This document shows positions 8,001 to 28,117 of a stretch of 64,000 nt of DNA, piece by piece. The notes below the pieces were generated by a model. The model saw only the letters and a program-made list of their open reading frames with translations, was not told the DNA's origin and searched no databases. A program made the translations under genes and the position numbers. This stretch comes from an uncultured Desulfobacter sp. Lineage in GTDB: Bacteria; Desulfobacterota; Desulfobacteria; Desulfobacterales; Desulfobacteraceae. Numbering within the stretch: the first letter of the stretch is position 1; each line of letters starts with the position of its first letter. The stretch covers positions 3,456,001-3,520,000 of the forward strand of contig OY762069.1 in NCBI GenBank assembly GCA_963665095.1, read 5' to 3'.

Positions 8001-8841
8001 GATTAATACCAGTAGTTTCAATCCACGCCCCCGCATGGAGGGCGACTTGAGTTGAGGATATGGCAGAATAAATAGCAAAGGTTTCAATCCACGCCCCCGC
8101 ATGGAGGGCGACTAGGGGTTTTAACCGGTCTTGAGATCGCTTTTTTTGTTTCAATCCACGCCCCCGCATGGAGGGCGACTCCGGCAAGGGCCCGGGCATG
8201 ATCAAGTTTATTTGTTTCAATCCACGCCCCCGCATGGAGGGCGACGTGAAATTTTGGTTCGGCTGATTTCCCCCTGGTCTGTTTCAATCCACGCCCCCGC
8301 ATGGAGGGCGACCTACCGCCTCAAAAAACCAGGCCTCCTCTTCAGGTTTCAATCCACGCCCCCGCATGGAGGGCGACTCTGGCTAAAACAGGCTTTTTAG
8401 CCAGATCAGCCTGTTTCAATCCACGCCCCCGCATGGAGGGCGACATCCGGCACTGCGTTTGTGGGCCGGTTTTTTCCGTTTCAATCCACGCCCCCGCATG
8501 GAGGGCGACTTGTCATCCGTTGTTGGCCGTTGTTGTCATTGACGTTTCAATCCACGCCCCCGCATGGAGGGCGACGCATGTGACCGGCACAAACTGGTTG
8601 GCGTCGTCGGTTTCAATCCACGCCCCCGCATGGAGGGCGACCTGCCTAAAAGTGATGCCATGTTAATGGCATTCACTGTTTCAATCCACGCCCCCGCATG
8701 GAGGGCGACATCGTTAGAGCAAGACAGCGCATACTGGGTAGACGTTTCAATCCACGCCCCCGCATGGAGGGCGACACTGTTCCGGTTGTGACAGTTACAG
8801 AGCGAATCCGTTTCAATCCACGCCCCCGCATGGAGGGCGAC
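4976..8841 (-). CRISPR. Type I-C CRISPR array, leader-distal segment (about 59 repeats, 58 spacers)
   Basis: 32-bp repeat GTCGCCCTCCATGCGGGGGCGTGGATTGAAAC (minus strand) with spacers of about 32-36 bp; one repeat SNP in the unit at about 5373; manual count. Confidence 0.98.
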
Positions 8842-8998
8842 CTGGGTAAAAGCCCGTTTTTGAGAATGATCACAAAAAATCATGGAAAAATTAAAGATAA
8901 TTTGCAAGATATGCCAGGGATGAGGCAGAAGCTCCCCCGTTTATCTCGCAAATAATCAATGGAACTTCTGCCCCTATTACCCTAACAGGGCAGGAGAT

Positions 8999-9574
8999 AT
9001 GCTATCAGAACTTATTAAAAACAAAAATCTTTTTTTCCATCTTTACGAAATCGATAAAAATACAGCAAAACAGTACAGACAGTTGCCTTGTCCGCATTGT
9101 GGAGGCCCCTTATATTTCAGCAATTACATGCGCAAGCCCCGGGGAGAGCCTGAGGGCGTGCCGGAGGAATTCTTTATTCAGTTCAGCCTATGTTGTGGAA
9201 CCGAAGGGTGTCGCAAAAGATTGATGCCGCCGTCCTGCCGTTTTCTGGGGAGAAAAGTCTACTGGTTTGCAGTTATTCTGTGTGTTTTAACAGACTGGCA
9301 AAATACCAATGAAAAAATCACCGTTTATGATTTGTCCATACGAACTGGCATTAGCCGGAACACAATAAACCGCTGGCTTGCCTTTTTTCAGGATACATTT
9401 CCAGTGAGCCGAACCTGGCGAAGGCTTCGGGGGCAGATATCCGCTGGTGTCAGTAACAGCCGTCTGCCGTCAAGTTTCATCAATTATTGCCGGGCGGTGA
9501 AATCCAACGCCGAAAACGCACTTGTATCAAGCCTGATAATCTTATCAGGCGGGTCCAAAATCAGGGCCGGATAA
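8999..9574 (+). CDS. Transposon accessory protein with Zn-ribbon (CPHCGG…CC…GC) and HTH-like segment
   Basis: Cys pattern; GISRNTINRW helix-turn-helix-like segment; AGGAG RBS. Confidence 0.75.
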   Translation: MLSELIKNKNLFFHLYEIDKNTAKQYRQLPCPHCGGPLYFSNYMRKPRGEPEGVPEEFFIQFSLCCGTEGCRKRLMPPSCRFLGRKVYWFAVILCVLTDWQNTNEKITVYDLSIRTGISRNTINRWLAFFQDTFPVSRTWRRLRGQISAGVSNSRLPSSFINYCRAVKSNAENALVSSLIILSGGSKIRAG

Positions 9575-9680
9575 TCTCGCGCAGAGGATGAACATAGACA
9601 AATATATGCAGGCTGTTTTACCACCTGATTTCAGACGTTGATCCGAAATTTTAACCTGAAATTAAAAAGGAGCCTGATTT

Positions 9681-11126
9681 ATGAGTGGTAAAACACAGCA
9701 CCCGGCAGACCTGTGGGCATTATTTCGCTTTTCGGTTATCGGCGGTTTACTGGCACGCCCTCCGGCAAAGGGAGAGTTGCAAAATGAACTGACCCGGCTC
9801 GCAGGTCAAATCTATTCTCATCCTGTGACGAACAAACCGACCTGTTTTCATTTTTCCACAATTGAGGCCTGGTATTACAGGGCAAAAAATTGCCAGGACC
9901 CAATTCTGGCTCTGGGCCGTAAAGTTCGTTCAGATATGGGCAAATCCACAGCATTGAATGCTGAATTGATCCGCCTTCTTGGTGTCCAGTACAACACTTA
10001 TCCGCAATGGAGCTATCAGCTTCATTGCGACAACCTGGCAGCTGAAATCGCTGAACAGGGCCTGTGTGAGAATCCGCCGTCCTATGCAAGTGTGAGAAGG
10101 CGTATGGTTGAACGGGGTTGGAGAAAAAAGGCTTCCAAGAACAAAAATCAAACATCCGGACAGAAATCAGCTTTTAAGCGATTAGAAACGTATGAAGTCC
10201 GTAGTTATGAAACCGAAAACATCCATGAATTATGGCATCTGGACTTTCACGAATGCAGCAGGCGCGTGGTGGACGAAAAAGGTCAGTGGCATACGCCCAA
10301 GGCATTGTGCATTCTTGATGATCGCTCCCGTCTGTGTTGTCATATTCAATGGTATTTGAATGAAACGGCAGAGGTTTTGATCCACGGCTTGTCCCAGGCG
10401 TTTTACAAAAGAGGGCTTCCCAGAGCCTTGATGACAGATAATGGTTCTGCCATGATTGCTCATGAAACCGGCAACGGACTTAAACGATTGGGCGTCAGTC
10501 ATGAGACCACGTTGCCATACTCGCCCTATCAAAATGGGAAGCAGGAAGCCTTTTGGGGTACACTTGAAGGCCGTTTGATCGCCATGCTGAGCCGGATGGA
10601 TTCTTTGACCCTGGTATATTTAAATCAGGTCTCCCAGGCCTGGATCGAGATGGAATACAACAAGTCAACCCATGATGAAATTCATATGTCGCCATTGCAA
10701 TGCGCCCTTGACGGCAAGGATGTGTCACGTCCTGCACCGGAACCTGAACAGCTTCAATTTTCGTTTACAGCCTGTGAATCCAGAAAACAGCGTCTGTCCG
10801 ATGGTACCATCTCTTTGATGGGCATCCGGTTTGAAATCCCTTCACGGTTTAATCATATCCAGCGTCTTCATGTCTGTTTTTGCTCCTGGGATAAATCGGT
10901 TGCCTGGCTGATAGATAAACGAACCGGAAATAAGCTTGCCGCAATTTATCCCCAGGACAAGACAAAGAATGCTTCAGCAATCCGTCGTATCAAATCCACT
11001 CCGGATGAAATTAACCCTGGCCATGAAACCCTGTCCGGATCAGAACCGGCCCTGCTTAAAAAGCTCTTGTCCGATTATGCAGCAACCGGAATGCCTTGTG
11101 CCTACTTGCCAATGGAGGAAAAGTGA
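9681..11126 (+). CDS. DDE-type integrase/transposase (rve core, Mu/TnsB-like C-terminus)
   Basis: WHLDFH, ILDDRSR, TDNGSA, PYSPYQNGKQEAFW motifs. Confidence 0.92.
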   Translation: MSGKTQHPADLWALFRFSVIGGLLARPPAKGELQNELTRLAGQIYSHPVTNKPTCFHFSTIEAWYYRAKNCQDPILALGRKVRSDMGKSTALNAELIRLLGVQYNTYPQWSYQLHCDNLAAEIAEQGLCENPPSYASVRRRMVERGWRKKASKNKNQTSGQKSAFKRLETYEVRSYETENIHELWHLDFHECSRRVVDEKGQWHTPKALCILDDRSRLCCHIQWYLNETAEVLIHGLSQAFYKRGLPRALMTDNGSAMIAHETGNGLKRLGVSHETTLPYSPYQNGKQEAFWGTLEGRLIAMLSRMDSLTLVYLNQVSQAWIEMEYNKSTHDEIHMSPLQCALDGKDVSRPAPEPEQLQFSFTACESRKQRLSDGTISLMGIRFEIPSRFNHIQRLHVCFCSWDKSVAWLIDKRTGNKLAAIYPQDKTKNASAIRRIKSTPDEINPGHETLSGSEPALLKKLLSDYAATGMPCAYLPMEEK

Positions 11127-11950
11127 TGAACAGCAAACGATTATTGGCTTATTATGGATTGAAGTACAATCCTTTTTTACCAAATATTCCTGTGGACTCA
11201 TTATGGCATCCACCCCGGATGGAGGCATTTATTACACGCCTTGAAAATATGACCATGAACGGTGGATTTGCATTAATCGCCGGTGAACCCGGTCTTGGCA
11301 AATCCAAGACACTACAGGCGATTGCCCATCAGCTTGGCAAGCTTGATGAAGTCGTTGTCGGCGTTATGGAGCGCCCCCAAAGCAGCGTGGCCGATTTCTA
11401 TCGGGAAATGGGGACACTGTTTGGTGTCAATTTGAGTCCGGCCAACCGTTACGGAGGGTTCAAAGATCTGCGGCAACGATGGAAAAATCATATTAAAACA
11501 ACCCTGTTCAGACCCGTCCTGCTCATTGATGAGGCTCAGGAAATGCTTACCGGATGCCTGAATGAGCTTCGGTTGCTCAACAGTATGGATTTTGACTCCC
11601 AGAATTTATTGACCACCATTATCTGTGGTGATACCCGGCTGCCGGAACGGTTCAGAACCAGTGCATTGGTAGCCCTGGGGAGTCGACTCCGGTTCCGGTT
11701 AAAATTGGATCCTTATACCCGGGAAGAATTGTTGGATTATATAGCGCATTGCCTAAATCAGGCCGGAGCTCCTCAACTCATGACAAAACCTTTAATCACC
11801 GCTTTGGTAGAGCACTGTACAGGAAACTTACGGGTCCTCAATAATATGTCGGCAGAACTGCTTGAAGTGGGCGTTCAAAGAGAGCTGCCGCAACTGGATG
11901 AGAAACTTTTCATAGAGCTTTTTTCACTGAAACCGTCGCCAACCAGATAA
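11126..11950 (+). CDS. ExeA/TnsC-like AAA ATPase (transposition helper)
   Basis: Walker A GEPGLGKS, Walker B LLIDEAQ, YYGLKYNPF N-terminus; start overlaps the transposase stop. Confidence 0.9.
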   Translation: MNSKRLLAYYGLKYNPFLPNIPVDSLWHPPRMEAFITRLENMTMNGGFALIAGEPGLGKSKTLQAIAHQLGKLDEVVVGVMERPQSSVADFYREMGTLFGVNLSPANRYGGFKDLRQRWKNHIKTTLFRPVLLIDEAQEMLTGCLNELRLLNSMDFDSQNLLTTIICGDTRLPERFRTSALVALGSRLRFRLKLDPYTREELLDYIAHCLNQAGAPQLMTKPLITALVEHCTGNLRVLNNMSAELLEVGVQRELPQLDEKLFIELFSLKPSPTR

Positions 11951-11961
11951 GAGGTATAAAA

Positions 11962-12204
11962 ATGACAATCAATGAAACACAACTTGAAAAAACAATGGCT
12001 GAAATTGTCGACGAGCTGGGCAATCTGGTCATGGAGTTGATCCTTGTCAGTTTAAAAAAAATAAACTCGGAAAATCATCTTTTGACAGAATTGCTGGAGA
12101 TCAAACAAGAGGAACAAAGAGAAAATGAATTTTATGGTTTTGGTGAAACGGAGCCGGGACATCCTGGGGAGGAAACCCGGCAAGGGATAGCCAAAAGCAG
12201 GTAG
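11962..12204 (+). CDS. Small acidic hypothetical protein within the transposon
   Basis: 80-aa ORF with GAGG RBS, same operon. Confidence 0.6.
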   Translation: MTINETQLEKTMAEIVDELGNLVMELILVSLKKINSENHLLTELLEIKQEEQRENEFYGFGETEPGHPGEETRQGIAKSR

Positions 12205-12220
12205 CATTGAATAATGCGCC

Positions 12221-12252
12221 GGGGGAAGCGGGGTTGACCTGCTTCCCCTTTC
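12221..12252 (+). terminator. Putative intrinsic terminator of the transposon operon
   Basis: GGGGAAGCGGG…CCTGCTTCCCC stem followed by TTT. Confidence 0.55.
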
Positions 12253-12419
12253 TGTATTATTCAAGCTTTCCTGCTCATGCCTTAAAAAACCCAATAAAAT
12301 CAGTCGGAGCGCAGCGACATCTGCTAATCATTGAAAATACAGTTATGCCTTTCCCTGATTTATCCTGATTGTCGCTCCATTGATTATCGTGCTTCCTCTC
12401 ATTTTACCCAGATCGACCT

Positions 12420-18544: not shown

Positions 18545-19822
18545 TTAAAATCCGACCTCCCCAATATAAGGAAGGGCACCGTATCGTCCCTGAAGATACC
18601 CCTTTTCCAGCGCATCCCTTTTACAAGGATGAAAATCGGATAGCGAATAAAGCTGTGTGGCAGACGCGTTATCCTTTTCCACAAACCAGATCTGATCCCA
18701 TCTTAAAATTTTTAAATCCAGGATGGATGTATCATGGGTGGAAAAGACAAGCTGTCCATTGGCCTTATTAGAGACACGATTATGGATCATCCGAAGCAAA
18801 AACCGAATCATATGAGGATGAAAACTATTATTTAATTCATCAACAATCAATACCCGTCCATTTGTCAAAAGATCCAGCCAGGGACCGGCATAGGCAAAAA
18901 TTTTCTGCGTCCCAGCCGACTCATCCTCCAGTTTGAACGAGGTGGTCTGCTCCGAATCATTCATTTTATGGATGAATTCAACCTGCTTGAAACCTGTCCC
19001 GTTCAAATCCGTTGCTATTTTTTTCTTCAGCTCTCCGGGAACATTATCAGGCATTTTAATTTTATCTGTACTCAATTTGTCTGTTTTAATCCGGATGCCA
19101 TCCAGATTAACATCCGCACCTTTCATAAATGCCAGCACAGTGTTTCTGACAGTTTCTTCCTCACATTGTTCAATGGTAAACCCGGGATCAACATTCACCC
19201 CATGTCCGATAATCATCAATTTTTTAAACCAGGCAAACACTGGTTTTAACTGTTCACTGTTCAATTGCACAGCAACCGACAGGAAAAGGGCATTGGGGCG
19301 TGTATTCTCTTTCCATGTTTTTTTATTTCCGGCGAGTTTATTGCCCAAAGACCAGGCTTCTTCACCGGTTTTAGAATCAAATGAACGCTCAAACCATCGT
19401 TGAGGCCGGCTTTCCGGGTATGCCAGAAGCCACTCCCCGGTAACCCGTGCCTCATTACATGCAAATCCGTATTGGTACCGTACCTCGTCCTGGATAAAAA
19501 AAATCTCAAGTTCTGTTGACTCTGAAAGTCCCTGAGAATTCAGTCTGAATGGGAAACGATTGATAGTGTCTCCATCCTGTCCATGTCTGGAAGAGTCCAG
19601 GACAAAGCGCTGCATAAAGCCAAGCGCAGAAATCAAATTGCTTTTGCCCGCCCCATTGGGTCCCCAAATAACAGCAGACTTTAACAGTTTCAATAATCCC
19701 TTTATGGGGGTATCAAACACATTGCTGTCCTGCAGATCCTTAATGGCATTGCCTGCCGTCATGCTAAGGGTCTGCTGTTCCCACACAGATTTATAATTTT
19801 TTACACTGAATTCAATAAGCAT
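18545..19822 (-). CDS. AAA_21/AbiEii/RloA-like ABC-type ATPase inserted in the cas operon
   Basis: MLIEFSVKNYKS, GPNGAGKSN, ESAGT, LIVDEL…HP, FSTHD, GRYGALP. Confidence 0.85.
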   Translation of the reverse strand: MLIEFSVKNYKSVWEQQTLSMTAGNAIKDLQDSNVFDTPIKGLLKLLKSAVIWGPNGAGKSNLISALGFMQRFVLDSSRHGQDGDTINRFPFRLNSQGLSESTELEIFFIQDEVRYQYGFACNEARVTGEWLLAYPESRPQRWFERSFDSKTGEEAWSLGNKLAGNKKTWKENTRPNALFLSVAVQLNSEQLKPVFAWFKKLMIIGHGVNVDPGFTIEQCEEETVRNTVLAFMKGADVNLDGIRIKTDKLSTDKIKMPDNVPGELKKKIATDLNGTGFKQVEFIHKMNDSEQTTSFKLEDESAGTQKIFAYAGPWLDLLTNGRVLIVDELNNSFHPHMIRFLLRMIHNRVSNKANGQLVFSTHDTSILDLKILRWDQIWFVEKDNASATQLYSLSDFHPCKRDALEKGYLQGRYGALPYIGEVGF

Positions 19823-19886
19823 GATGCATTTTCCAAATTTGGAAAAAAACAAAAAAACTGCATTTTTTGCAATGAAAATATAATTT

Positions 19887-20702
19887 CTATTGTTTTAGGC
19901 TCCGGTTTCTTTGTTTTTCATGGACCTCATCCACAAGATCCATGGACACTTTCCAGACCTGTTCACAAAAGGCTGAAAACGCGTTTAACGCCTCCGGTTC
20001 CGGCAACAGTTCACCACCACCTTGAATCTGTCCGACAGCGTAATGATACTGGGACAGTGCATCAATATAGGTTTTGCGCGCTTCCTTTGGCACAATGACG
20101 GGCGGCAGGCCCGCCTTTAAGACCGGCAGGTTGGCAACAAGTCTTGCCATCCTGCCGTTACCATCAAAAAAGGGATGAATGTGAACAAAGGAGACATGAA
20201 GAGCAACATAAGCCTGCAATGCCGTTTCTCTATCCCCGGGCACAGTTGATGACATAAGCTTATGATAGAGCGTAAACCACTTTTCCATAAGTTGGGGGAC
20301 ATCTTCGGGCAATGCATACTCAAAGACCACCTGTTTCTCATCCACCACGCCCACAGTGGAGTTGGGCTCTTTTTTCCAGCCCCCCACAGGTTTGTATATA
20401 TCAACAACCACATGGGTCTGAACCGCTTTGTGAAGATTGAACAGCGCCTCTTCATCAAAAGATCCCCCCTGGTCCAGCAATCCATAAACCAGATCAATGG
20501 CCCTGGCATGACCCACCACCTCCTCATGGTCCTTGAGGGGCTTGCCCGAAACGGTCAAGCCCTCTTCAAGAACAAAGGCGGTTTCACCCAAAGTCAGGGA
20601 GTTGCCCTCAATGGCTGTGGAGGTGTGGGTCCACAGGTTGCGCAGCTGGGTTATCAGGGCTTTTTGGAGGTCTTTGTCAAGATCCTGTAAAAAATAAAGC
20701 AT
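19887..20702 (-). CDS. Fic-family protein inserted in the cas operon
   Basis: Canonical HPFFDGNGRMAR motif; N-terminal STAIEGN inhibitory-type motif. Confidence 0.92.
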   Translation of the reverse strand: MLYFLQDLDKDLQKALITQLRNLWTHTSTAIEGNSLTLGETAFVLEEGLTVSGKPLKDHEEVVGHARAIDLVYGLLDQGGSFDEEALFNLHKAVQTHVVVDIYKPVGGWKKEPNSTVGVVDEKQVVFEYALPEDVPQLMEKWFTLYHKLMSSTVPGDRETALQAYVALHVSFVHIHPFFDGNGRMARLVANLPVLKAGLPPVIVPKEARKTYIDALSQYHYAVGQIQGGGELLPEPEALNAFSAFCEQVWKVSMDLVDEVHEKQRNRSLKQ

Positions 20703-21599: not shown

Positions 21600-23366
21600 T
21601 TAAACCTCCTCATTTTTTTTAGTAAAAAAGCTTTTACGCTGATGATAGTATCCAATCATAAAAAGCCCTTGCGCCTCTGCAGGAAGTGTTGCCGGGAAAG
21701 CGTCAAACTTATCCACGATTTCCTGAACCAGTCTTTCAAAATAGGTTGCCCGTCCCGTTTTTTCAGGATCTTTTCTAAGCTTAGCAATATGATTGGTTGA
21801 ATTCTTTAAAATCATGTGGAAAACAAGTCCCGGTGTAGCCGAAGCAGATGAAAGATAACGGTCTTTCATGGTTGCATTGGCACCGGGAATCGCCTCTTCC
21901 TGTGCTTTTTCCAAAACTGAAAAAAGACGACCCAATAGATACGATCCATCGGTTCTCTCAATGTCCAGCGTCATGGTTACCTCCTTTAAATTAGTCGCGG
22001 TTGAATTGCGCATAAGAAAAGCTTTAAGCATAGCAGCTCGAAAATAGGTTATATTGTGTTCACTGCGAATACGTTGAAGAACAAGCGGTAACAAATTCTG
22101 CGGAAAAGCAGAACCTGTTAAAATTGCGCGGGCCATGTTGCCTGCCAATACCGGTGAAACATTCTCACTTTTCCCTTGAGAAGCTGTTTGACAGAGCAGA
22201 CGCCAAAGCGGCGGGTATTCAGGCTCATTTTCGAACTGCCTTGCAATGGAAAGCTGGTCAAAGTAATTACTTATTCTTTTTAACAGGTTGCCGAAACTGT
22301 CCACTTCCCAAAAACGAATGGAAAGTCGGGCTGCATTGGGCGATAATCCTAAAATAAAAAACCGAATCGAATCATCCAGGTCCGGCATTATATCTGTTAC
22401 TCTACGGCCGTCTTTGACCGCACGTAAAAGCCCACGTATCTTTTCGGCTGTTTCCTGGTCATCCTGGTTCTTTTTCGAGGGATCTGTTTCTATTTCAGGA
22501 GGATCAAAAAGATCCGCAAAAAGGTCTTCAGCCGGACTGGGTTTTTCAGCCCAGAAAACCAGCGTCATGTCGCCGATGGTAATATGCTGGCGGCTATTAG
22601 ACGATAACAGTGAGTTTAAGGCTGTGGTATAGGCAAAGGCTGACATTTCACTTACAGCAGCTTTATCTTGCCCATAGGAGACAAATGCCGTTGCATTGTA
22701 TGAAACGATATACCCCCCTGATGTTTGCCCTCCCCTGACTCCTTTTATCGGGGTATGAACTCTGGCTTGGGGGACATCTTTTTCACCATTGACCATACAT
22801 TGGATACTGGGAGCGCTGTTTGACTGCTCAACGTATTTCAACCAGGCGTTGCGGACAAGGCTTCGCTCATGAATATAACCGGTGGTTCCATCCAGCCGAA
22901 ATACAAAATTAGCGTTACACAGGTCATCCCAGGAATGATATTCTATAAGCACAGATTCAGTTTCCTGGCTATTCCATTGCTGGAGAAAGGCTAACACGGC
23001 GTGAATAGCGTTATCTTCTATGCCTTGGCACACTTCGCTGATTAATCCTTGAAAAGCTTCAAACCGCGATCTATTATCATCTGTAGGCCCATCGGAATCA
23101 GCCCCCAGCACATAGGCCGCCTTATCCCACAAAAAATTGGCTTTTACACCAGATGTCCTGGTAACTGCGGCTGGCACAGGGATCATTCTGGGGATTAATT
23201 TCCTTCCACTTTGTTCCCTTAAATCATCCACGCCCTTGAGTGATCCTTTATCATCAATAATCAAGGCAAATGAGATCTTCTCAATACTTGTGCCAAACGG
23301 CGGCATCCCGGAGTCTGAGTCTGCAGCCACTCTTTCATAGTAACTGTTTAAGGCCTGGAGAATCAT
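21600..23366 (-). CDS. cas8c: Type I-C Cas8c/Csd1
   Basis: [43 protein letters not shown]. Confidence 0.96.
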
Positions 23367-24028
23367 GATTTTACCTCCGAAGATAAAGGAGAGGGCGGTC
23401 TGATAATTCCGTTTTCCATAACAGCTTTAAAAAAAAGAGGGGTTTGATTGTTATTAAAATCTATGTCCAGCAACATATACCCCAAATCCTTAGAGTATCC
23501 GTTATAGCAAGAGACCGGAATTTCATCTTCCAGCAGTTCGAAAGCGGCGGGGAACTCCCGGCATCCTAAGCACGGCTGATGAAAAAACTGCCCATTTTGT
23601 GCCCGTCTGTTAAAGATACTCAGATGCTTGCCTTCGTTATCATCACTACCGGCCTTATCCGTCATTTCAAAATGCGCCTCAATGATATAAGCGACGTCCC
23701 TGAGCAGGGTAGTCGCACGCTGCTGTCTGTTTTTACCGTCATCGACAAGATAATAAAGACGTTTTTCCTTGCTCATAACCGTGGAGGGATTAGGTTTAGG
23801 AATCTTAGACGCCACTTCATTGCGGCGGACATTATCGAATTTAATAGGATTTAAAACGTGTATTTTATCAATGACCCAACGAATAGCCGGCTTCCAATGA
23901 ATTGCTTCCAGAATACCTCGAGCGGCCGAGGGCGTCATAACATCATAAGATACACGTTCCACTTTCATCTCCGGGCGGGTAAAGCAGGCATAATCGCCCC
24001 AGACCTTCAACTTGATTCCAAATGCCAT
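23363..24028 (-). CDS. cas5: Type I-C Cas5c (crRNA-processing nuclease)
   Basis: [37 protein letters not shown] 24028 after AAGGAG RBS. Confidence 0.97.
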
Positions 24029-24050
24029 AAATTGTCTCCTTTTTAGAGAT

Positions 24051-24090
24051 TGCAGGCCATAAATATCATCTGTTTTATAAATGGCCTGCA
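24051..24090. repeat. 10-bp perfect inverted repeat (hairpin) closing the mini-guide RNA, just upstream of the cas5 RBS
   Basis: TGCAGGCCAT (24051-24060) / ATGGCCTGCA (24081-24090). Confidence 0.7.
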
Positions 24091-24146
24091 TGCCCTAGCT
24101 GCTTCTACCTAATGTTTCAATCCACATTCCCGTATTCGGAAACGAC
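24051..24146 (-). ncRNA. Candidate CRISPR-like regulatory RNA (CreA/CreR-like): solitary diverged repeat + 23-nt guide + hairpin
   Basis: Repeat GTCGTTTCCGAATACGGGAATGTGGATTGAAAC (24114-24146, minus) keeps the 3' handle and hairpin; guide ATTAGGTAGAAGCAGCTAGGGCA (24091-24113) matches the PAM-flanked site 24305-24324. Confidence 0.85.
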
Positions 24147-24154
24147 ATATCCTT

Positions 24155-24229
24155 TTATGGGGACTCCAAAACGAGTTCAACATCAAACAGTTCTTTTCCC
24201 CAAATGGCTATTTTAAGCTTTATCCGCAT
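24155..24229 (-). CDS. Unannotated 24-aa peptide MRIKLKIAIWGKELFDVELVLESP (candidate CRISPR-repressed toxin or leader peptide)
   Basis: Strong SD GAGGGGGG (24235-24242) 5 nt before ATG; stop 8 nt before the diverged repeat; lies directly downstream of the promoter. Confidence 0.6.
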   Translation of the reverse strand: MRIKLKIAIWGKELFDVELVLESP

Positions 24230-24262
24230 ATGATCCCCCCTCTTTAAATTAATTGCATATTA

Positions 24263-24291
24263 AAAATAGAAGGGAAAAAGTTAATAGTCAA
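24263..24291 (-). promoter_or_regulatory. Sigma70-type promoter for peptide ORF, mini-crRNA and cas5-cas8c-cas7
   Basis: TTGACT (24286-24291) - N17 - TATTTT (24263-24268) on the minus strand. Confidence 0.7.
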
Positions 24292-24301
24292 GAATAAATT
24301 A

Positions 24302-24324
24302 TTCATTAGTTAGAATAAGCTTGG
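24302..24324 (+). promoter_or_regulatory. Cascade target site of the mini-guide (TTC PAM + partial protospacer)
   Basis: TTC then ATTAGTTAGAATAAGCTTGG versus guide ATTAGGTAGAAGCAGCTAGG: 16/20, mismatches at 6, 12, 13, 18. Confidence 0.8.
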
Positions 24325-24331
24325 TAACTAA

Positions 24332-26521
24332 TCATTGAATTAAACTTCCAACGTCCCAAACATCTGCACGGTCAATCATCAAGCCCACATCACCGCTATA
24401 CGCCCCCTTATTTTGTAATATCGGGATCTCGTCATGAATTAGTTCAATTGCTCCTACAGTATACAACTTGGTGTATTCTCCGGCCCTAACAGCAACCAGA
24501 TAGGGTTGAAGTTTTCTAAGCAGAATCCCTGGAAATTCTGTGTACCTAAGCTGTTCAACCAATTGCTCTGCTTCTGGTTCCCCGGGCACCACAACGCCAA
24601 TCGTATCGTCTTCAATAAACCGAAAATCCCGGGCAACCTCCTTGAAAGGGAACAAAAGATCTTTATCAAGTATCTTGGGATTTAAACGGCGCATGATCTG
24701 TTTCTTATCCAGATCTTCGATGTCATAAAGCAGTTCAAAATAACGCCGCATCACCTGAGTACTCATAGGATCATATTCCGGCATACAGCGTATTGCCTCA
24801 GCGGTTTTCGAAATACACCTGTTAAGCCAGGGCATCCGAGGCTTTTTTTCCGGTTCAAAAATAAAAACCTGCCCAAGCCCTTTCATCTTGCCCTCTCGAT
24901 TACAACGACCGGCAGCCTGAGCAATGGAATCCAAACCAGAGATGGCCCTGAAAACAACCGGAAAATCCAAATCAACCCCAGCCTCCACAAGAGAAGTGGC
25001 AACCACCACACATTTTTTATTTTCACGCAAACGCCGCCTTATTCTCTTAAATATCTGCCTCCGATGCTGTGGATACATATTTGTGGATAAATGAAAAATC
25101 CCGACATTTTTTTTATTTAACAACTCGAATATTTTCCGGGCTTGTGATTTTGTGGCGGCAATACACAACGCCTGGTTCTCAAAATTCATAAGCTGCGCAA
25201 TTTCTTCATCCGTTTTTTTCCCGATAAAAGAGACATTGGTGCGCTTTAATTTTGAAAAAATTAGGTCTGGCTCATCAATTATTTCTTTAATTTGCGGCAA
25301 AGCTGACCGTAAACGACTGGTATCATCAAAGGCCGGTTGAGTTGCTGTGCATAAGACGACGGTACAACCGTAGTGAGCCACCAATTCCCGAAGGGCGGCA
25401 AGGCAAGGTTCTAGATAATCAGCCGGGACGGCCTGTGCTTCGTCTATCACAATAACACTTCGAGCAATATTGTGAAGTTTACGGCAACGGGAAGATTTAT
25501 TATTAAAAAGGGATTCAAAGAATTGTACATTGGTGGTGACTATAATCGGGCAATCCCAATTTTCTGTGGCCAATCCCCGTCGCCGGTTATAAGCAGCCTC
25601 TTCGGGTTCATCAGATTCTTTATAATTGCAATGATGTTCGAGAACTGAATTTCTCCCAAAAATATTTTGGAAAACTCCTGCATTCTGTTCAATGATTGAG
25701 GTGAAAGGAATCGTATAAATTATTCTGTCCATACCATTTTCGACCGCATGATCTAAAGCGAAACTCATGGAAGACAACGTTTTTCCGCCACCTGTCGGCA
25801 CTGTGAAAGAAAAAAACTGTGGCGGTAATTGGGCTTTTCCTTTGCATTGGCCGAATATAATCCTTCGAAGCTTGTTCACATGGGTCGGCTGAGCGCTTGC
25901 AAGAATATCATTCATGTAAATTTCCATCTTGCGTTGAAGCTCAGATATGTTTTTTTCTTGCTGGAATCGCCCCCTTTCTTTTGCAATTTCGGGGGCACAA
26001 AATTTTTCAGTATCTAAAAAGTCAGCGTCAACAAGGCAGGAAAAAATCATTCGAGTAAAAAATGACAAAGAAAAGCCCCCAGTTTCTCTTTCCAGTTTAA
26101 ATGGGAAGTCTAATTTTTTAAGATACGGGTTTATTAAATCAAGTTTTTCAGTTTCATGAGAATTGTTATGCTTTAACCGAAAATGCAACTGTGTCTCCTG
26201 CTCTCCACCGTCAGGAATCCCACCATGATGGCCCGCAATTGCATAAGATAAGAGCAGGCCAAGATTACCACTGCTTTCCTTTGCCAGGCAAGCACCAAAG
26301 GAGGAATGGTCCACTCGTTCTGGACTACCCTCCAATCTTCGTTGAAAAGCTAAAGTTGCTTTTCCGGCATCATGCAGTAATCCAGCCAAATTCCCCCATT
26401 TTTTTGCCTCGAAAGTTCCCGAAAAACAACCCGCCATATTGGCAACATTCGTCAGATGAGTTTCCAGAAGCTGCCATTCTTTTTTTGGTCTCTCTTGTAA
26501 ACTGTGTGCGTAGTATTTCAT
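24332..26521 (-). CDS. cas3: Cas3 HD nuclease-helicase
   Basis: YAHS…LLHDAGK, AGHHGG, LVDADFLDT, PTGGGKT, IDEAQ, QAAGRCNR; ATG 26521 after GGAGAGG. Confidence 0.97.
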   Translation of the reverse strand: MKYYAHSLQERPKKEWQLLETHLTNVANMAGCFSGTFEAKKWGNLAGLLHDAGKATLAFQRRLEGSPERVDHSSFGACLAKESSGNLGLLLSYAIAGHHGGIPDGGEQETQLHFRLKHNNSHETEKLDLINPYLKKLDFPFKLERETGGFSLSFFTRMIFSCLVDADFLDTEKFCAPEIAKERGRFQQEKNISELQRKMEIYMNDILASAQPTHVNKLRRIIFGQCKGKAQLPPQFFSFTVPTGGGKTLSSMSFALDHAVENGMDRIIYTIPFTSIIEQNAGVFQNIFGRNSVLEHHCNYKESDEPEEAAYNRRRGLATENWDCPIIVTTNVQFFESLFNNKSSRCRKLHNIARSVIVIDEAQAVPADYLEPCLAALRELVAHYGCTVVLCTATQPAFDDTSRLRSALPQIKEIIDEPDLIFSKLKRTNVSFIGKKTDEEIAQLMNFENQALCIAATKSQARKIFELLNKKNVGIFHLSTNMYPQHRRQIFKRIRRRLRENKKCVVVATSLVEAGVDLDFPVVFRAISGLDSIAQAAGRCNREGKMKGLGQVFIFEPEKKPRMPWLNRCISKTAEAIRCMPEYDPMSTQVMRRYFELLYDIEDLDKKQIMRRLNPKILDKDLLFPFKEVARDFRFIEDDTIGVVVPGEPEAEQLVEQLRYTEFPGILLRKLQPYLVAVRAGEYTKLYTVGAIELIHDEIPILQNKGAYSGDVGLMIDRADVWDVGSLIQ

Positions 26522-26869: not shown

Positions 26870-28006
26870 TTATATTTTTACAAGCTTTATCTCCTCGATC
26901 ATTGTGTTAATCTCTTTGATCTCCTGCTGGGCGGATTCGACCCCGGCGGCGGTGGTCAACAGGTCGAAAAACCGCCCATTGGCATTGAGTATCCGGCGGG
27001 AAGCGTCAGGTTCGCTATAATCGGTCCGGCTGTAGTGGGTTTCTATTTTCTGTTCAAAGTCATTGCGTAAATTTATTGTGATCAGGTCCAGCTCCACAAG
27101 CCGGTAAAGAAAGGCCTGGGTTGAAATACCGAATCTGTGTTTGATACGCAGCAGAAGCTCCCAGGTCCAGGTGGAAGGGCTTACGCCCAGCTGGGCCACG
27201 GTGGCTTTTACTGCGGTGTCAGGCATGAGAAAGGTGGCAGCGAAATGTTTGGCCGCCCGCATGGACTTAATGGGGCGCGGGTCGTCCGGTGTTGGGGCTT
27301 TTTCCGGGAAAAGCGTGTCTTTGCGATGGGTCATCTGGTTGAAAATCAGGATCTTTCCCAGTTCGGCAGCCAGGCTGAACAGCTGCTTTTCCGGGTTCTT
27401 GCGCGTGTTGATGAAAAAGAAGGCGTTTTGATGGGTGGGTTCATAAAAGGAAACCGACTCAAGATCCTGGGCGGACCGCATAAAAGGAAATAAAAGAACC
27501 CGCAATCCGAAATTTTCAAACAGCTCAAGGTAATCAAATACCACAGCATCGCCTGTGCCCATGGCGGTTCTGATCCGGGCGGCCAGGGCCTCCATGCCGG
27601 TGTATTCCGGGTCAAAGGGAAGAGATAAGGGAATGGTGGCGTGTTTCTGGACCCCGAGAATATCCTCCAGGGAATGGAATGCGGCCATGAGATCCCGGCA
27701 GGCAGACAACAGGGCTTTGGGTGGCACCGCCGCATCCGGTTCAATGGTTACCAGGGCGGCACTGGTATCCTGGGCGGCAGCTCCGGCACGGGACGTATCC
27801 GGGGCAAACAAAGCATTGGCAGGGACATCCAGTGCCTGGGTCAGGTTGAATATCACTGTGGCCGAAGGCAAATTCTCACCGCGTTCGATGCGGCCCAGGG
27901 GACCTTCCTGGATACCGATTTTGGAAGCTAACTGAGCCAGAGTCCAGTTGCGTGAGCAGCGGAAAAACCGGATATTTTTTCCAATGAATGTTAAGTCCTG
28001 TGACAT
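26870..28006 (-). CDS. XRE-family HTH regulator fused to ImmA/IrrE (DUF955)-like domain with degenerate HExxH
   Basis: N-terminal IGKNIRFFR…TLAQLASKIG…IERGE; FSLAAELGK in place of FTLAHELGH; AKHFAATFLMP. Confidence 0.8.
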   Translation of the reverse strand: MSQDLTFIGKNIRFFRCSRNWTLAQLASKIGIQEGPLGRIERGENLPSATVIFNLTQALDVPANALFAPDTSRAGAAAQDTSAALVTIEPDAAVPPKALLSACRDLMAAFHSLEDILGVQKHATIPLSLPFDPEYTGMEALAARIRTAMGTGDAVVFDYLELFENFGLRVLLFPFMRSAQDLESVSFYEPTHQNAFFFINTRKNPEKQLFSLAAELGKILIFNQMTHRKDTLFPEKAPTPDDPRPIKSMRAAKHFAATFLMPDTAVKATVAQLGVSPSTWTWELLLRIKHRFGISTQAFLYRLVELDLITINLRNDFEQKIETHYSRTDYSEPDASRRILNANGRFFDLLTTAAGVESAQQEIKEINTMIEEIKLVKI

Positions 28007-28117
28007 GACGCCATACAATCATAGCATTACTTCTATGTCAATAATTAATGATATTATTCATAAAAGTGATACTTATGTAAGATTTTATAGGAATTTCATA
28101 CCCGGCCTGATAACCGG

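Follow-up and report, generated by a model that had tools for sequence, protein, structure and literature searches.

In loci of the CRISIS (crlRNA) kind within CRISPR-Cas type I-C, a solitary repeat that precedes cas5c and is followed by a 3' hairpin gives rise to a guide of 48-50 nt, with which Cascade represses the promoter of a cargo between cas3 and cas5c. This cargo is unleashed by the anti-CRISPR AcrIC9 and consists of defence proteins of hundreds of residues (Shu et al., 10.1101/2024.12.27.630466). Related loops were described for other types. The CreT element of P. aeruginosa type I-F is built from a Shine-Dalgarno (SD) sequence, a mini-ORF of 15 nt ending in Pro-Pro-stop (CCT-CCG) and a hairpin; it kills, acts as an RNA, and needs both prolines (10.64898/2026.06.02.729485). 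The CreT RNAs of haloarchaeal type I-B combine a small ORF with a hairpin under a Cascade guide; they carry two consecutive AGA or AUA codons, tRNA sequestration was proposed for them, and the peptide is irrelevant (PMC8501985). In CrePA of Acinetobacter type I-F, a promoter repressed by a guide drives a protein cargo, the 103-aa phage-derived KilAC domain CreP, which is encoded between cas3 and the effector genes (10.1101/2024.01.05.574328). CreR mini-CRISPRs direct a guide to the promoter that drives the effector genes, without a co-occurring toxin ORF, and creA-like elements in type I-C are mentioned in the same paper (10.1101/2023.03.10.532045).

The stretch of DNA analysed here, referred to as the window, comprises 64,000 nucleotides of an uncultured Desulfobacter sp. 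(GenBank assembly GCA_963665095.1, contig OY762069.1, positions 3,456,001 to 3,520,000). Its minus strand carries a type I-C operon that opens with cas3, cas5c, cas8c (TIGR01863, 558 bits) and cas7, continues with two inserted genes and closes with cas4, cas1, cas2 and a long array. From the stop of cas3 to the ATG of cas5c the gap measures 303 nt and contains, from 5' to 3' on the minus strand, a putative promoter, an SD, an ORF of 24 codons, a diverged repeat, a spacer and a hairpin, after which cas5c begins (Table 1). The cas3 stop precedes the small ORF by 102 nt. The genes inserted between cas7 and cas4 (18545-20702) encode a Fic protein and an AAA_21 (AbiEii-type) ATPase and may share the repressed promoter of the ORF. 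The related genome G006 has the Fic gene only, without the ATPase, and no Fic or ATPase match was detected in the ORF carriers L018, L026 and L031.

Table 1. Coordinates of the cassette, its flanking genes and the look-alike ORFs of three rhizobial loci.
Feature	Position	Strand	Basis
cas3 (type I-C helicase-nuclease)	24332..26521	-	NCBIfam TIGR01587 and TIGR01596 above cut-off; ORF list
PAM and target of the crRNA-like spacer	24302..24321 (TTC PAM 24302-24304; target 24305-24321)	+	spacer pairing
Putative sigma-70 promoter, -35 TTGACT at 24291	24263..24291	-	consensus scan
Shine-Dalgarno GAGGGGGG	24235..24242	-	sequence; 5 nt before ATG 24229
24-codon ORF, predicted amphipathic beta-hairpin, ending Glu-Ser-Pro(CCA)-stop	24155..24229	-	translation and family alignment
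Solitary CRISPR repeat, diverged (psi-R), keeping its hairpin and 3' handle	24114..24146	-	repeat comparison, fold
Spacer of the crRNA-like RNA	24091..24113	-	target match; 3' end inferred from next hairpin
3' hairpin closing the crRNA-like RNA	24051..24090	-	fold; compensatory changes
cas5c, start ATG 24028, SD at 24040, first of cas5c-cas8c-cas7	23363..24028	-	TIGR01876, 203.6 bits
Rhizobial look-alike ORFs	L052:3806-3886, L086:2915-2995, L092:3794-3874	minus	inverted promoter-ORF-repeat cassette

Other features of the window were recorded along with the operon. A regulator with an HTH and an IrrE-like peptidase (M78) lies directly upstream of cas3 (26870-28018). The array of 118 repeats is split by a 3.6-kb insert (8820-12419) with three plus-strand ORFs of 191, 481 and 284 aa, which read like the transposase and ATPase of an insertion element. 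Between 13000 and 15350, several spacers recur with small changes or hold short internal tandem repeats, which suggests duplication or repeated acquisition from one element.

The solitary repeat keeps the hairpin and the 3' end of the array repeat; of the 119 occurrences of the repeat's 12-nt end in the genome, this one alone lies outside the array. A comparison of 18 homologues revealed compensatory changes in its hairpin and in the helix of the 3' hairpin, there in all nine of nine pairs. The spacer matches its target at 14 of 15 pairing positions behind the TTC PAM. Among the PAM-flanked sites of the 6.9-Mb genome, the target alone has a seed run of 12 nt, the others reaching 9 nt at most, and the 11-mer shared by spacer and target was found twice in the window against 0.02 matches expected. 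The target adjoins the TTGACT (-35) box. A consensus scan gave promoter hits no more numerous than chance; in each of the 22 homologues, a TTGA-type box, defined by a loose pattern, precedes the start by 52-74 nt. The layout corresponds to that of CRISIS loci, with the cargo between cas3 and cas5c followed by solitary repeat, spacer and 3' hairpin, and also agrees with them in the TTC-PAM target beside the -35 box and in mismatches at positions 6 and 12 (10.1101/2024.12.27.630466).

Scoring of spacers against promoters covered 20 loci, with L121 and L125 left unscored and L121 matching by eye. Each of the 20 spacers matched its own promoter at 13-15 of 15 positions behind a TTC or TTT PAM, and 26 of 380 cross pairs, in which a spacer was compared with the promoter of another locus, reached at least 12 of 15. 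Judged from these alignments, spacer and target co-vary across loci. Instead of a single repeat and spacer, the cas3-cas5 gaps of L125 and L064 hold mini-arrays in which degenerate repeats and spacers number at least two. At the level of sequence, the proposal that the promoter is targeted by Cascade was therefore borne out. We infer that the guide represses the ORF promoter in the window, because the anatomy of the locus closely matches that of characterised I-C solitary-repeat loci.

The ORF had been singled out in the original prediction as a candidate CRISPR-repressed toxin, filling the space between promoter and diverged repeat behind a strong SD. The SD (GAGGGGGG, 24242-24235), its distance of 5 nt to the ATG and the translation were reproduced exactly, and the ORF ends 8 nt before the repeat; this distance is 7-25 nt in 19 of 20 scored loci. 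The energy of the SD duplex is -12.9 kcal/mol in the window and -8 or stronger in 18 of the 22 homologues. Base shuffling of the 129-nt promoter-to-repeat stretch (n=20,000) produced an SD with an ATG ORF of at least 20 aa in 1.3% of cases, so that one copy taken by itself is modest evidence; it is the conservation in 22 distinct loci that shows the ORF to be real.

These 22 distinct homologous sequences remained after removal of duplicates. All are in I-C loci, and those with a named or ranked source belong to the Thermodesulfobacteriota. From 80 loci selected by Cas5c, the best 21 (Cas5c identity 73-91%) were classified for their insert: five have a homologous 24-codon ORF in the slot, four have the guide only (L021, L024, L027 and L035), nine have no insert, one has another insert and two are cut off. 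Lack of the ORF where the mini-crRNA is conserved was to count against the original prediction; 22 loci have both, and four close loci have a guide and no ORF, which make the ORF an optional cargo. A DNA pattern applied to metagenomes specified the end of the repeat, Gly11, Glu18, Glu22 and five hydrophobic positions together with their spacing; any codon could stand at positions 1-10, 23 and 24, and TGA was permitted. It found 11 stretches, all 11 between cas3 and cas5c; in ten of them Gly11 follows an ATG at a distance of exactly ten codons. Searches with a profile independent of the repeat gave strong matches in 2 of 401, 7 of 301, 3 of 251 and 2 of 251 genomes (overlapping samples). The carriers were 12 distinct genomes, all with the ORF beside I-C genes and 11 with it between cas3 and cas5c; the copy in G790 precedes the cas3 of a distant I-C system (29% Cas5 identity). 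Seven weak matches (E 0.008-0.047) below the 25-bit cut were left out. Two further records, covered as protein sequences, end like the family. A second copy was not found in the genome of the window, where the next tblastn match had an E value of 0.077.

Across the homologues, pN was 0.30 and pS 0.74, the latter near saturation, and pairwise identity at codon positions 1, 2 and 3 was 0.58, 0.81 and 0.41. In-frame stops are absent from all 22 sequences; the other two forward frames have stops in 20 and 18 of the 22. One reverse frame is mostly open too (pN 0.33, pS 0.66), as the mirror frame predicts, and neither an SD nor a start is argued for it. On this codon evidence the ORF is selected at the protein level. 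The core of 24 columns is free of indels, a property enforced by the search pattern from Gly11 on in 11 members; Gly11, Glu18, Glu22 and their spacing were likewise fixed by the pattern for 11 of the 22 and free for the six found through Cas5. The conserved C-terminal residues keep a fixed distance from the stop across the family. Two members probably start earlier, with basic N-terminal extensions that bring them to 29 and 30 aa. From the comparison of the loci, the ORF is regarded with high confidence as a real, conserved and selected micro-gene under a promoter addressed by a Cascade guide.

Hydrophobic and charged residues alternate strictly along the peptide. The basic N-terminal and acidic C-terminal halves noted for the window copy recur throughout the family, the first half having a charge of +2 to +4 and the second of -1 to -4 in 22 of 22 members. 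AlphaFold, supplied with the 34-residue open frame that contains the peptide, returned two strands of 10-11 residues with a turn at Trp10-Gly11 at moderate confidence (mean pLDDT 67.5), and the peptide is predicted to be an amphipathic beta-hairpin. An origin from a duplicated 5' end of cas5c was considered and rejected: the two share their register up to Gly11, with only 1-5 of 10 identities and an hhalign probability of 3%.

Database searches did not connect the peptide with any described family. Nothing was matched in Pfam (0 of 9, and 0 of 4 small members) or in PHROGs and NCBIfam (0 of 12), PDB sequences gave no match, and the ESM Atlas gave no usable one; Rfam returned two chance matches. 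By tblastn with queries of 24-26 aa, no match was obtained in 50,697 phages or 72,556 plasmids, and the DNA pattern was not found in viral contigs. The exact peptide is absent among 15 billion proteins. With queries as short as these, all such searches are insensitive. Against 1.84 billion proteins, the family profile recovered four small members and one 678-aa scallop gene model; membership in a larger protein was dismissed, since this model has a tandem repeat and was judged an artefact. No such peptide is described in the papers searched on CreTA, CrePA, CreR, CRISIS, Cracr and mini-arrays (including 10.1101/2024.10.29.618823, PMC10120712 and PMC12737573); this search covered openly available texts, and a prior listing elsewhere is possible. 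In the portion of the CRISIS paper covered, no cargo like the 24-codon ORF is described (10.1101/2024.12.27.630466). The regulatory loop is already known; within this scope the 24-codon cargo is not.

The strongest mechanistic clue is one that the original prediction did not name, the invariant Pro(CCA)-stop with which the ORF closes. All 22 homologues have CCA as codon 24. Codon 23 encodes proline in 20 of them, with all four Pro codons in use, serine in the window and histidine in L109, so that the family end Glu-Pro-Pro(CCA)-stop reads Glu-Ser-Pro(CCA)-stop here. The stop is TAG in 16 members, TAA in six and TGA in none (n=22). As background, the long ORFs of the flanking regions contain 1408 Pro codons, of which CCA makes up 12.6%; in the genome of the window its share is 10.8%, and 49 of 154 C-terminal Pro codons there are CCA. 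TGA is the stop of 1272 among 3700 long ORFs. At Gly11 all four codons occur, and other fourfold sites are fully mixed. Among the 11 metagenome matches, in which the last two codons were free in the pattern, ten end in Pro-Pro and one in His-Pro, all with CCA and none with TGA. No P value is attached to the 22 of 22, because the members are kin. Inspection of the ORF end as a -10 box or as a partner of its own SD revealed no consistent pattern. The two early ATA codons noted in the original prediction are present at codons 3 and 7 of the window ORF, which has no AGA or AGG; 15 of the 22 homologues have no ATA codon, so that the feature is regarded as incidental and a mechanism based on rare ATA codons was rejected.

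The toxicity of minigenes depends on their last sense codon. One tRNA-Pro(tgg) gene was found in the genome; the isoacceptor tRNA-Pro(UGG) is essential in E. coli, since CCA needs it (PMC5909439). Pro-stop is a recognised class of stalling sequence (PMC13410324). Overexpression of TnaC, a Pro-stop arrest peptide, stops growth through capture of tRNA-Pro, an effect abolished by P24A, and PepNL blocks termination by a hairpin inside the tunnel (PMC11890864). The ORF resembles TnaC in its shortness and in the Pro-stop at residue 24, and PepNL in the hairpin-forming nascent chain predicted here. Sequence homology to either was not detected, and neither type is known from CRISPR loci in the literature searched.

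The locus shows two features of a CreTA module, a degenerate-repeat crRNA-like RNA inside the cas locus and a partial, PAM-proximal match to the cargo promoter. With the CreT of P. aeruginosa it shares the strong SD, the ORF, the downstream hairpin (here the repeat itself) and the guide-targeted promoter, and 20 of the 22 homologues end in Pro-Pro-stop, the window copy in Ser-Pro. In contrast to the 15-nt type I-F RNA with CCT-CCG, the family ORF has 75 nt and 24 codons, is under amino-acid selection, always ends in CCA and belongs to type I-C (10.64898/2026.06.02.729485). The arrangement of small ORF and hairpin under a Cascade guide recalls the haloarchaeal CreT RNAs, but neither the paired AGA or AUA codons nor the irrelevance of the peptide holds for the family (PMC8501985). 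CrePA offers a protein-coding cargo in the equivalent position, between cas3 and the effector genes; the proposed CreT/CreP-type cargo is upheld in so far as a real, selected small gene occupies the CreT/CreP/CRISIS slot, and not as regards kinship with CreP, since neither a KilAC or other domain nor a phage homologue was found (10.1101/2024.01.05.574328). As in CreR, the guide targets a promoter driving effector genes, and L021, L024, L027 and L035 have exactly the CreR form; unlike CreR, the family has a conserved ORF (10.1101/2023.03.10.532045). In contrast to CRISIS cargo of hundreds of residues, the ORF has 24 codons, and no defence domain was found in it. The cassette would work like a CreTA module, yet it departs from every described class of CreT or CreP in features that define the class; toxicity is a candidate function.

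Small ORFs outside the family were found in the slot in at least 13 of the 80 Cas5c-selected loci. Three rhizobial I-C loci (L052, L086 and L092) contain a hairpin-like look-alike of 26 aa that always ends in Pro-Ile(ATA)-stop, in a cassette that is inverted and faces away from cas5. ATA accounts for 12 of 345 Ile codons nearby. Like CCA, AUA depends on one tRNA of its own, and a haloarchaeal CreT is directed at it (PMC8501985). The look-alike was linked to the family by hhalign with a probability of 58% (E 1e-4), or 32% with a smaller alignment, and no new members were found in 250 order-level and 250 family-level genomes. In the gaps of L055, L058, L064, L066, L077, L083, L090 and L093, ORFs of 46-62 aa combine a beta-like stretch with a hydrophobic helix, and some run into the repeat. 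They look like small membrane toxins; PHROGs and NCBIfam gave no match, and the nearest Atlas clusters are unnamed viral proteins (0.85-0.88, a lead only). Unrelated slot ORFs encode a basic hydrophobic helix of 35 aa (L047:3780-3884) and a beta-type peptide of 32 aa (L085:388-483). In L057, L075 and L089 the gap of about 860 nt holds a solitary repeat and then a HicA-family toxin gene (Pfam match for L075); an ORF on the opposite strand may be the HicA partner.

The ORF is rather probably a toxin of some kind. The leading explanation, held a little short of probable, is a CreT-like toxin repressed by Cascade, in which the nascent peptide would hold up termination and trap tRNA-Pro(UGG). By analogy with characterised I-C systems, Cas5c would cut the solitary repeat, the short guide would load Cascade, and the loaded Cascade would repress the promoter without cutting DNA; through the same cut, the repeat hairpin would come to form the 3' end of the mRNA of the ORF. 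The steps that follow are the least sure. Loss of a Cascade gene or an anti-CRISPR would lift repression, and the strongly initiated ORF would be heavily translated. A hairpin-forming nascent chain ending in (Pro)-Pro-stop would then block or slow termination. Such a stall would hold the tRNA of the last codon, so that ribosomes and peptidyl-tRNA-Pro(UGG), the sole tRNA reading CCA, would become trapped and growth would stop. This arrest would make Cascade addictive and abort anti-CRISPR phages. The window copy, with serine for the penultimate proline, may be a weaker allele.

Several observations speak against the tRNA-trapping toxin. The window copy lacks the Pro-Pro that P. aeruginosa CreT needs, and L109 has His-Pro; the known CreT RNA toxins are indifferent to the peptide, whereas the ORF here is under amino-acid selection; the cassette is often lost; the link to the rhizobial look-alikes is the 58% given by hhalign; and the Fic and AbiEii-type ATPase genes after cas7 could be the repressed toxic cargo instead. 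The CCA can also be explained without any tRNA, since CCA-stop is the reverse complement of the cas5 start: in 15 of 21 loci, among them that of the window, six Watson-Crick pairs could form, RNAalifold pairs CCAU with AUGG of cas5 in 18 of 18, and the stop codon tracks the start context (TAG with CTATGG in 13 of 16, TAA in 0 of 5). This pairing belongs to a somewhat unlikely alternative, in which the ORF is a cis-acting leader or arrest peptide: a pause at Pro-stop would set the output of guide RNA or Cas5c, for example when the ribosome melts the CCAUAG/CUAUGG helix between ORF end and cas5c start or shields the transcript, which adds a translational tuner to a CreR loop and involves no toxin. 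The position of the ORF on the same transcript close before the repeat agrees with such a role, as do its TnaC-like length (a 24-residue leader) and Pro-stop, and the G790 copy precedes a cas3 that also starts with ATGG. The helix probability exceeds 0.5 in five of 21 loci but is below 0.1 in 16, among them the window with 0; the four consensus pairs are invariant on both sides and hence without covariation; CTATGG is the start context of loci lacking the ORF as well, and loci whose stop is TAA tend towards a high AT content. Moreover, L125 keeps CCA although its cas5 starts with ATGA, L124 and L125 have an extra strong hairpin directly after the stop, the four sister loci run the guide loop without the ORF, and the rhizobial look-alikes face away from cas5. 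It is the weak evidence for pairing that keeps the leader at this level, and a neutral leader peptide, offered in the original prediction as the other possibility, is unlikely for the family.

It is unlikely that the released peptide is itself the effector, a CreP-like protein toxin in which the charge-balanced amphipathic beta-hairpin would assemble into sheets, form a small membrane pore or add a strand to a host or Cas protein. The strict alternation, the opposite charges of the halves in all 22 members, the AlphaFold hairpin, the two basic N-terminal extensions and the different small ORFs in the slot of other I-C loci, several of them beta-like with a hydrophobic helix, are consistent with it. 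It leaves the fixed synonymous codon and the absence of TGA unexplained, however, no family, structure or larger parent protein was matched, and similarity to the N-terminal strand of Cas5c and to the membrane-type cargo reached 3% by hhalign. Very unlikely is a functional family with a weakened or decaying copy in the window, where the cassette would do no more than brake, in the manner of CreR, the Cascade promoter or the downstream Fic and AbiEii-type genes. Serine in place of Pro23, the lack of the cassette in close relatives of the same genus, one of them with a deletion scar, and the Fic and AAA_21 genes in the same operon point in this direction; against it, the copy retains SD, start, frame, Gly11, Glu18, Glu22, final CCA and hairpin pattern undamaged, the family profile (which includes the copy) gives it 53 bits, the spacer-target match is preserved, and L018, L026 and L031 carry the ORF without a Fic or ATPase match.

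An extension of the tRNA-trapping toxin, held only tentatively, is that a nascent beta-hairpin jams termination and the last codon picks the one tRNA without backup, CCA here and ATA in the rhizobial look-alikes. The arrest peptide would then be an anti-anti-CRISPR suicide device. It would add a fourth class to the toxins repressed by CRISPR and, going by the papers found, be the first one for type I-C, and the slot would be a general nursery of unannotated micro-toxins.

The history of gain and loss was followed on a Cas5 tree of 62 rows, which omits the cas5 of G006 and distant Cas5 rows. The 21 carriers fall into one clade (support 100/99), mixed with empty and guide-only loci, and presence of the cassette needs 12 changes, at least five of them forced. 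A DNA search of 24 genomes of the same genus found a close operon in four (Cas5c 90-91% identical) and the cassette in none of the four; G006 has a 96-nt deletion scar where the cassette was. An interrupted cas5 was seen in 0 of 21 loci with the ORF and 1 of 19 without it, numbers without statistical weight from partial loci chosen by best match. The sole interrupted Cascade gene seen in these loci is the cas5c of G006 (L005:1766-2100), the relative that deleted the cassette; an insertion of about 141 bp near codon 11 carries stops and has flanking direct repeats. The combination of a broken cas5c and a lost cassette fits addiction and proves nothing.

If the ORF is a cis-acting leader, it would add to the autoregulation of Cascade a translational layer that is absent from the papers found. 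If it is toxic, CRISPR addiction and anti-anti-CRISPR defence would extend to type I-C by way of a gene too small for annotation, and CreT toxins would be linked to ribosome arrest peptides in a compact kill switch tied to Cascade.
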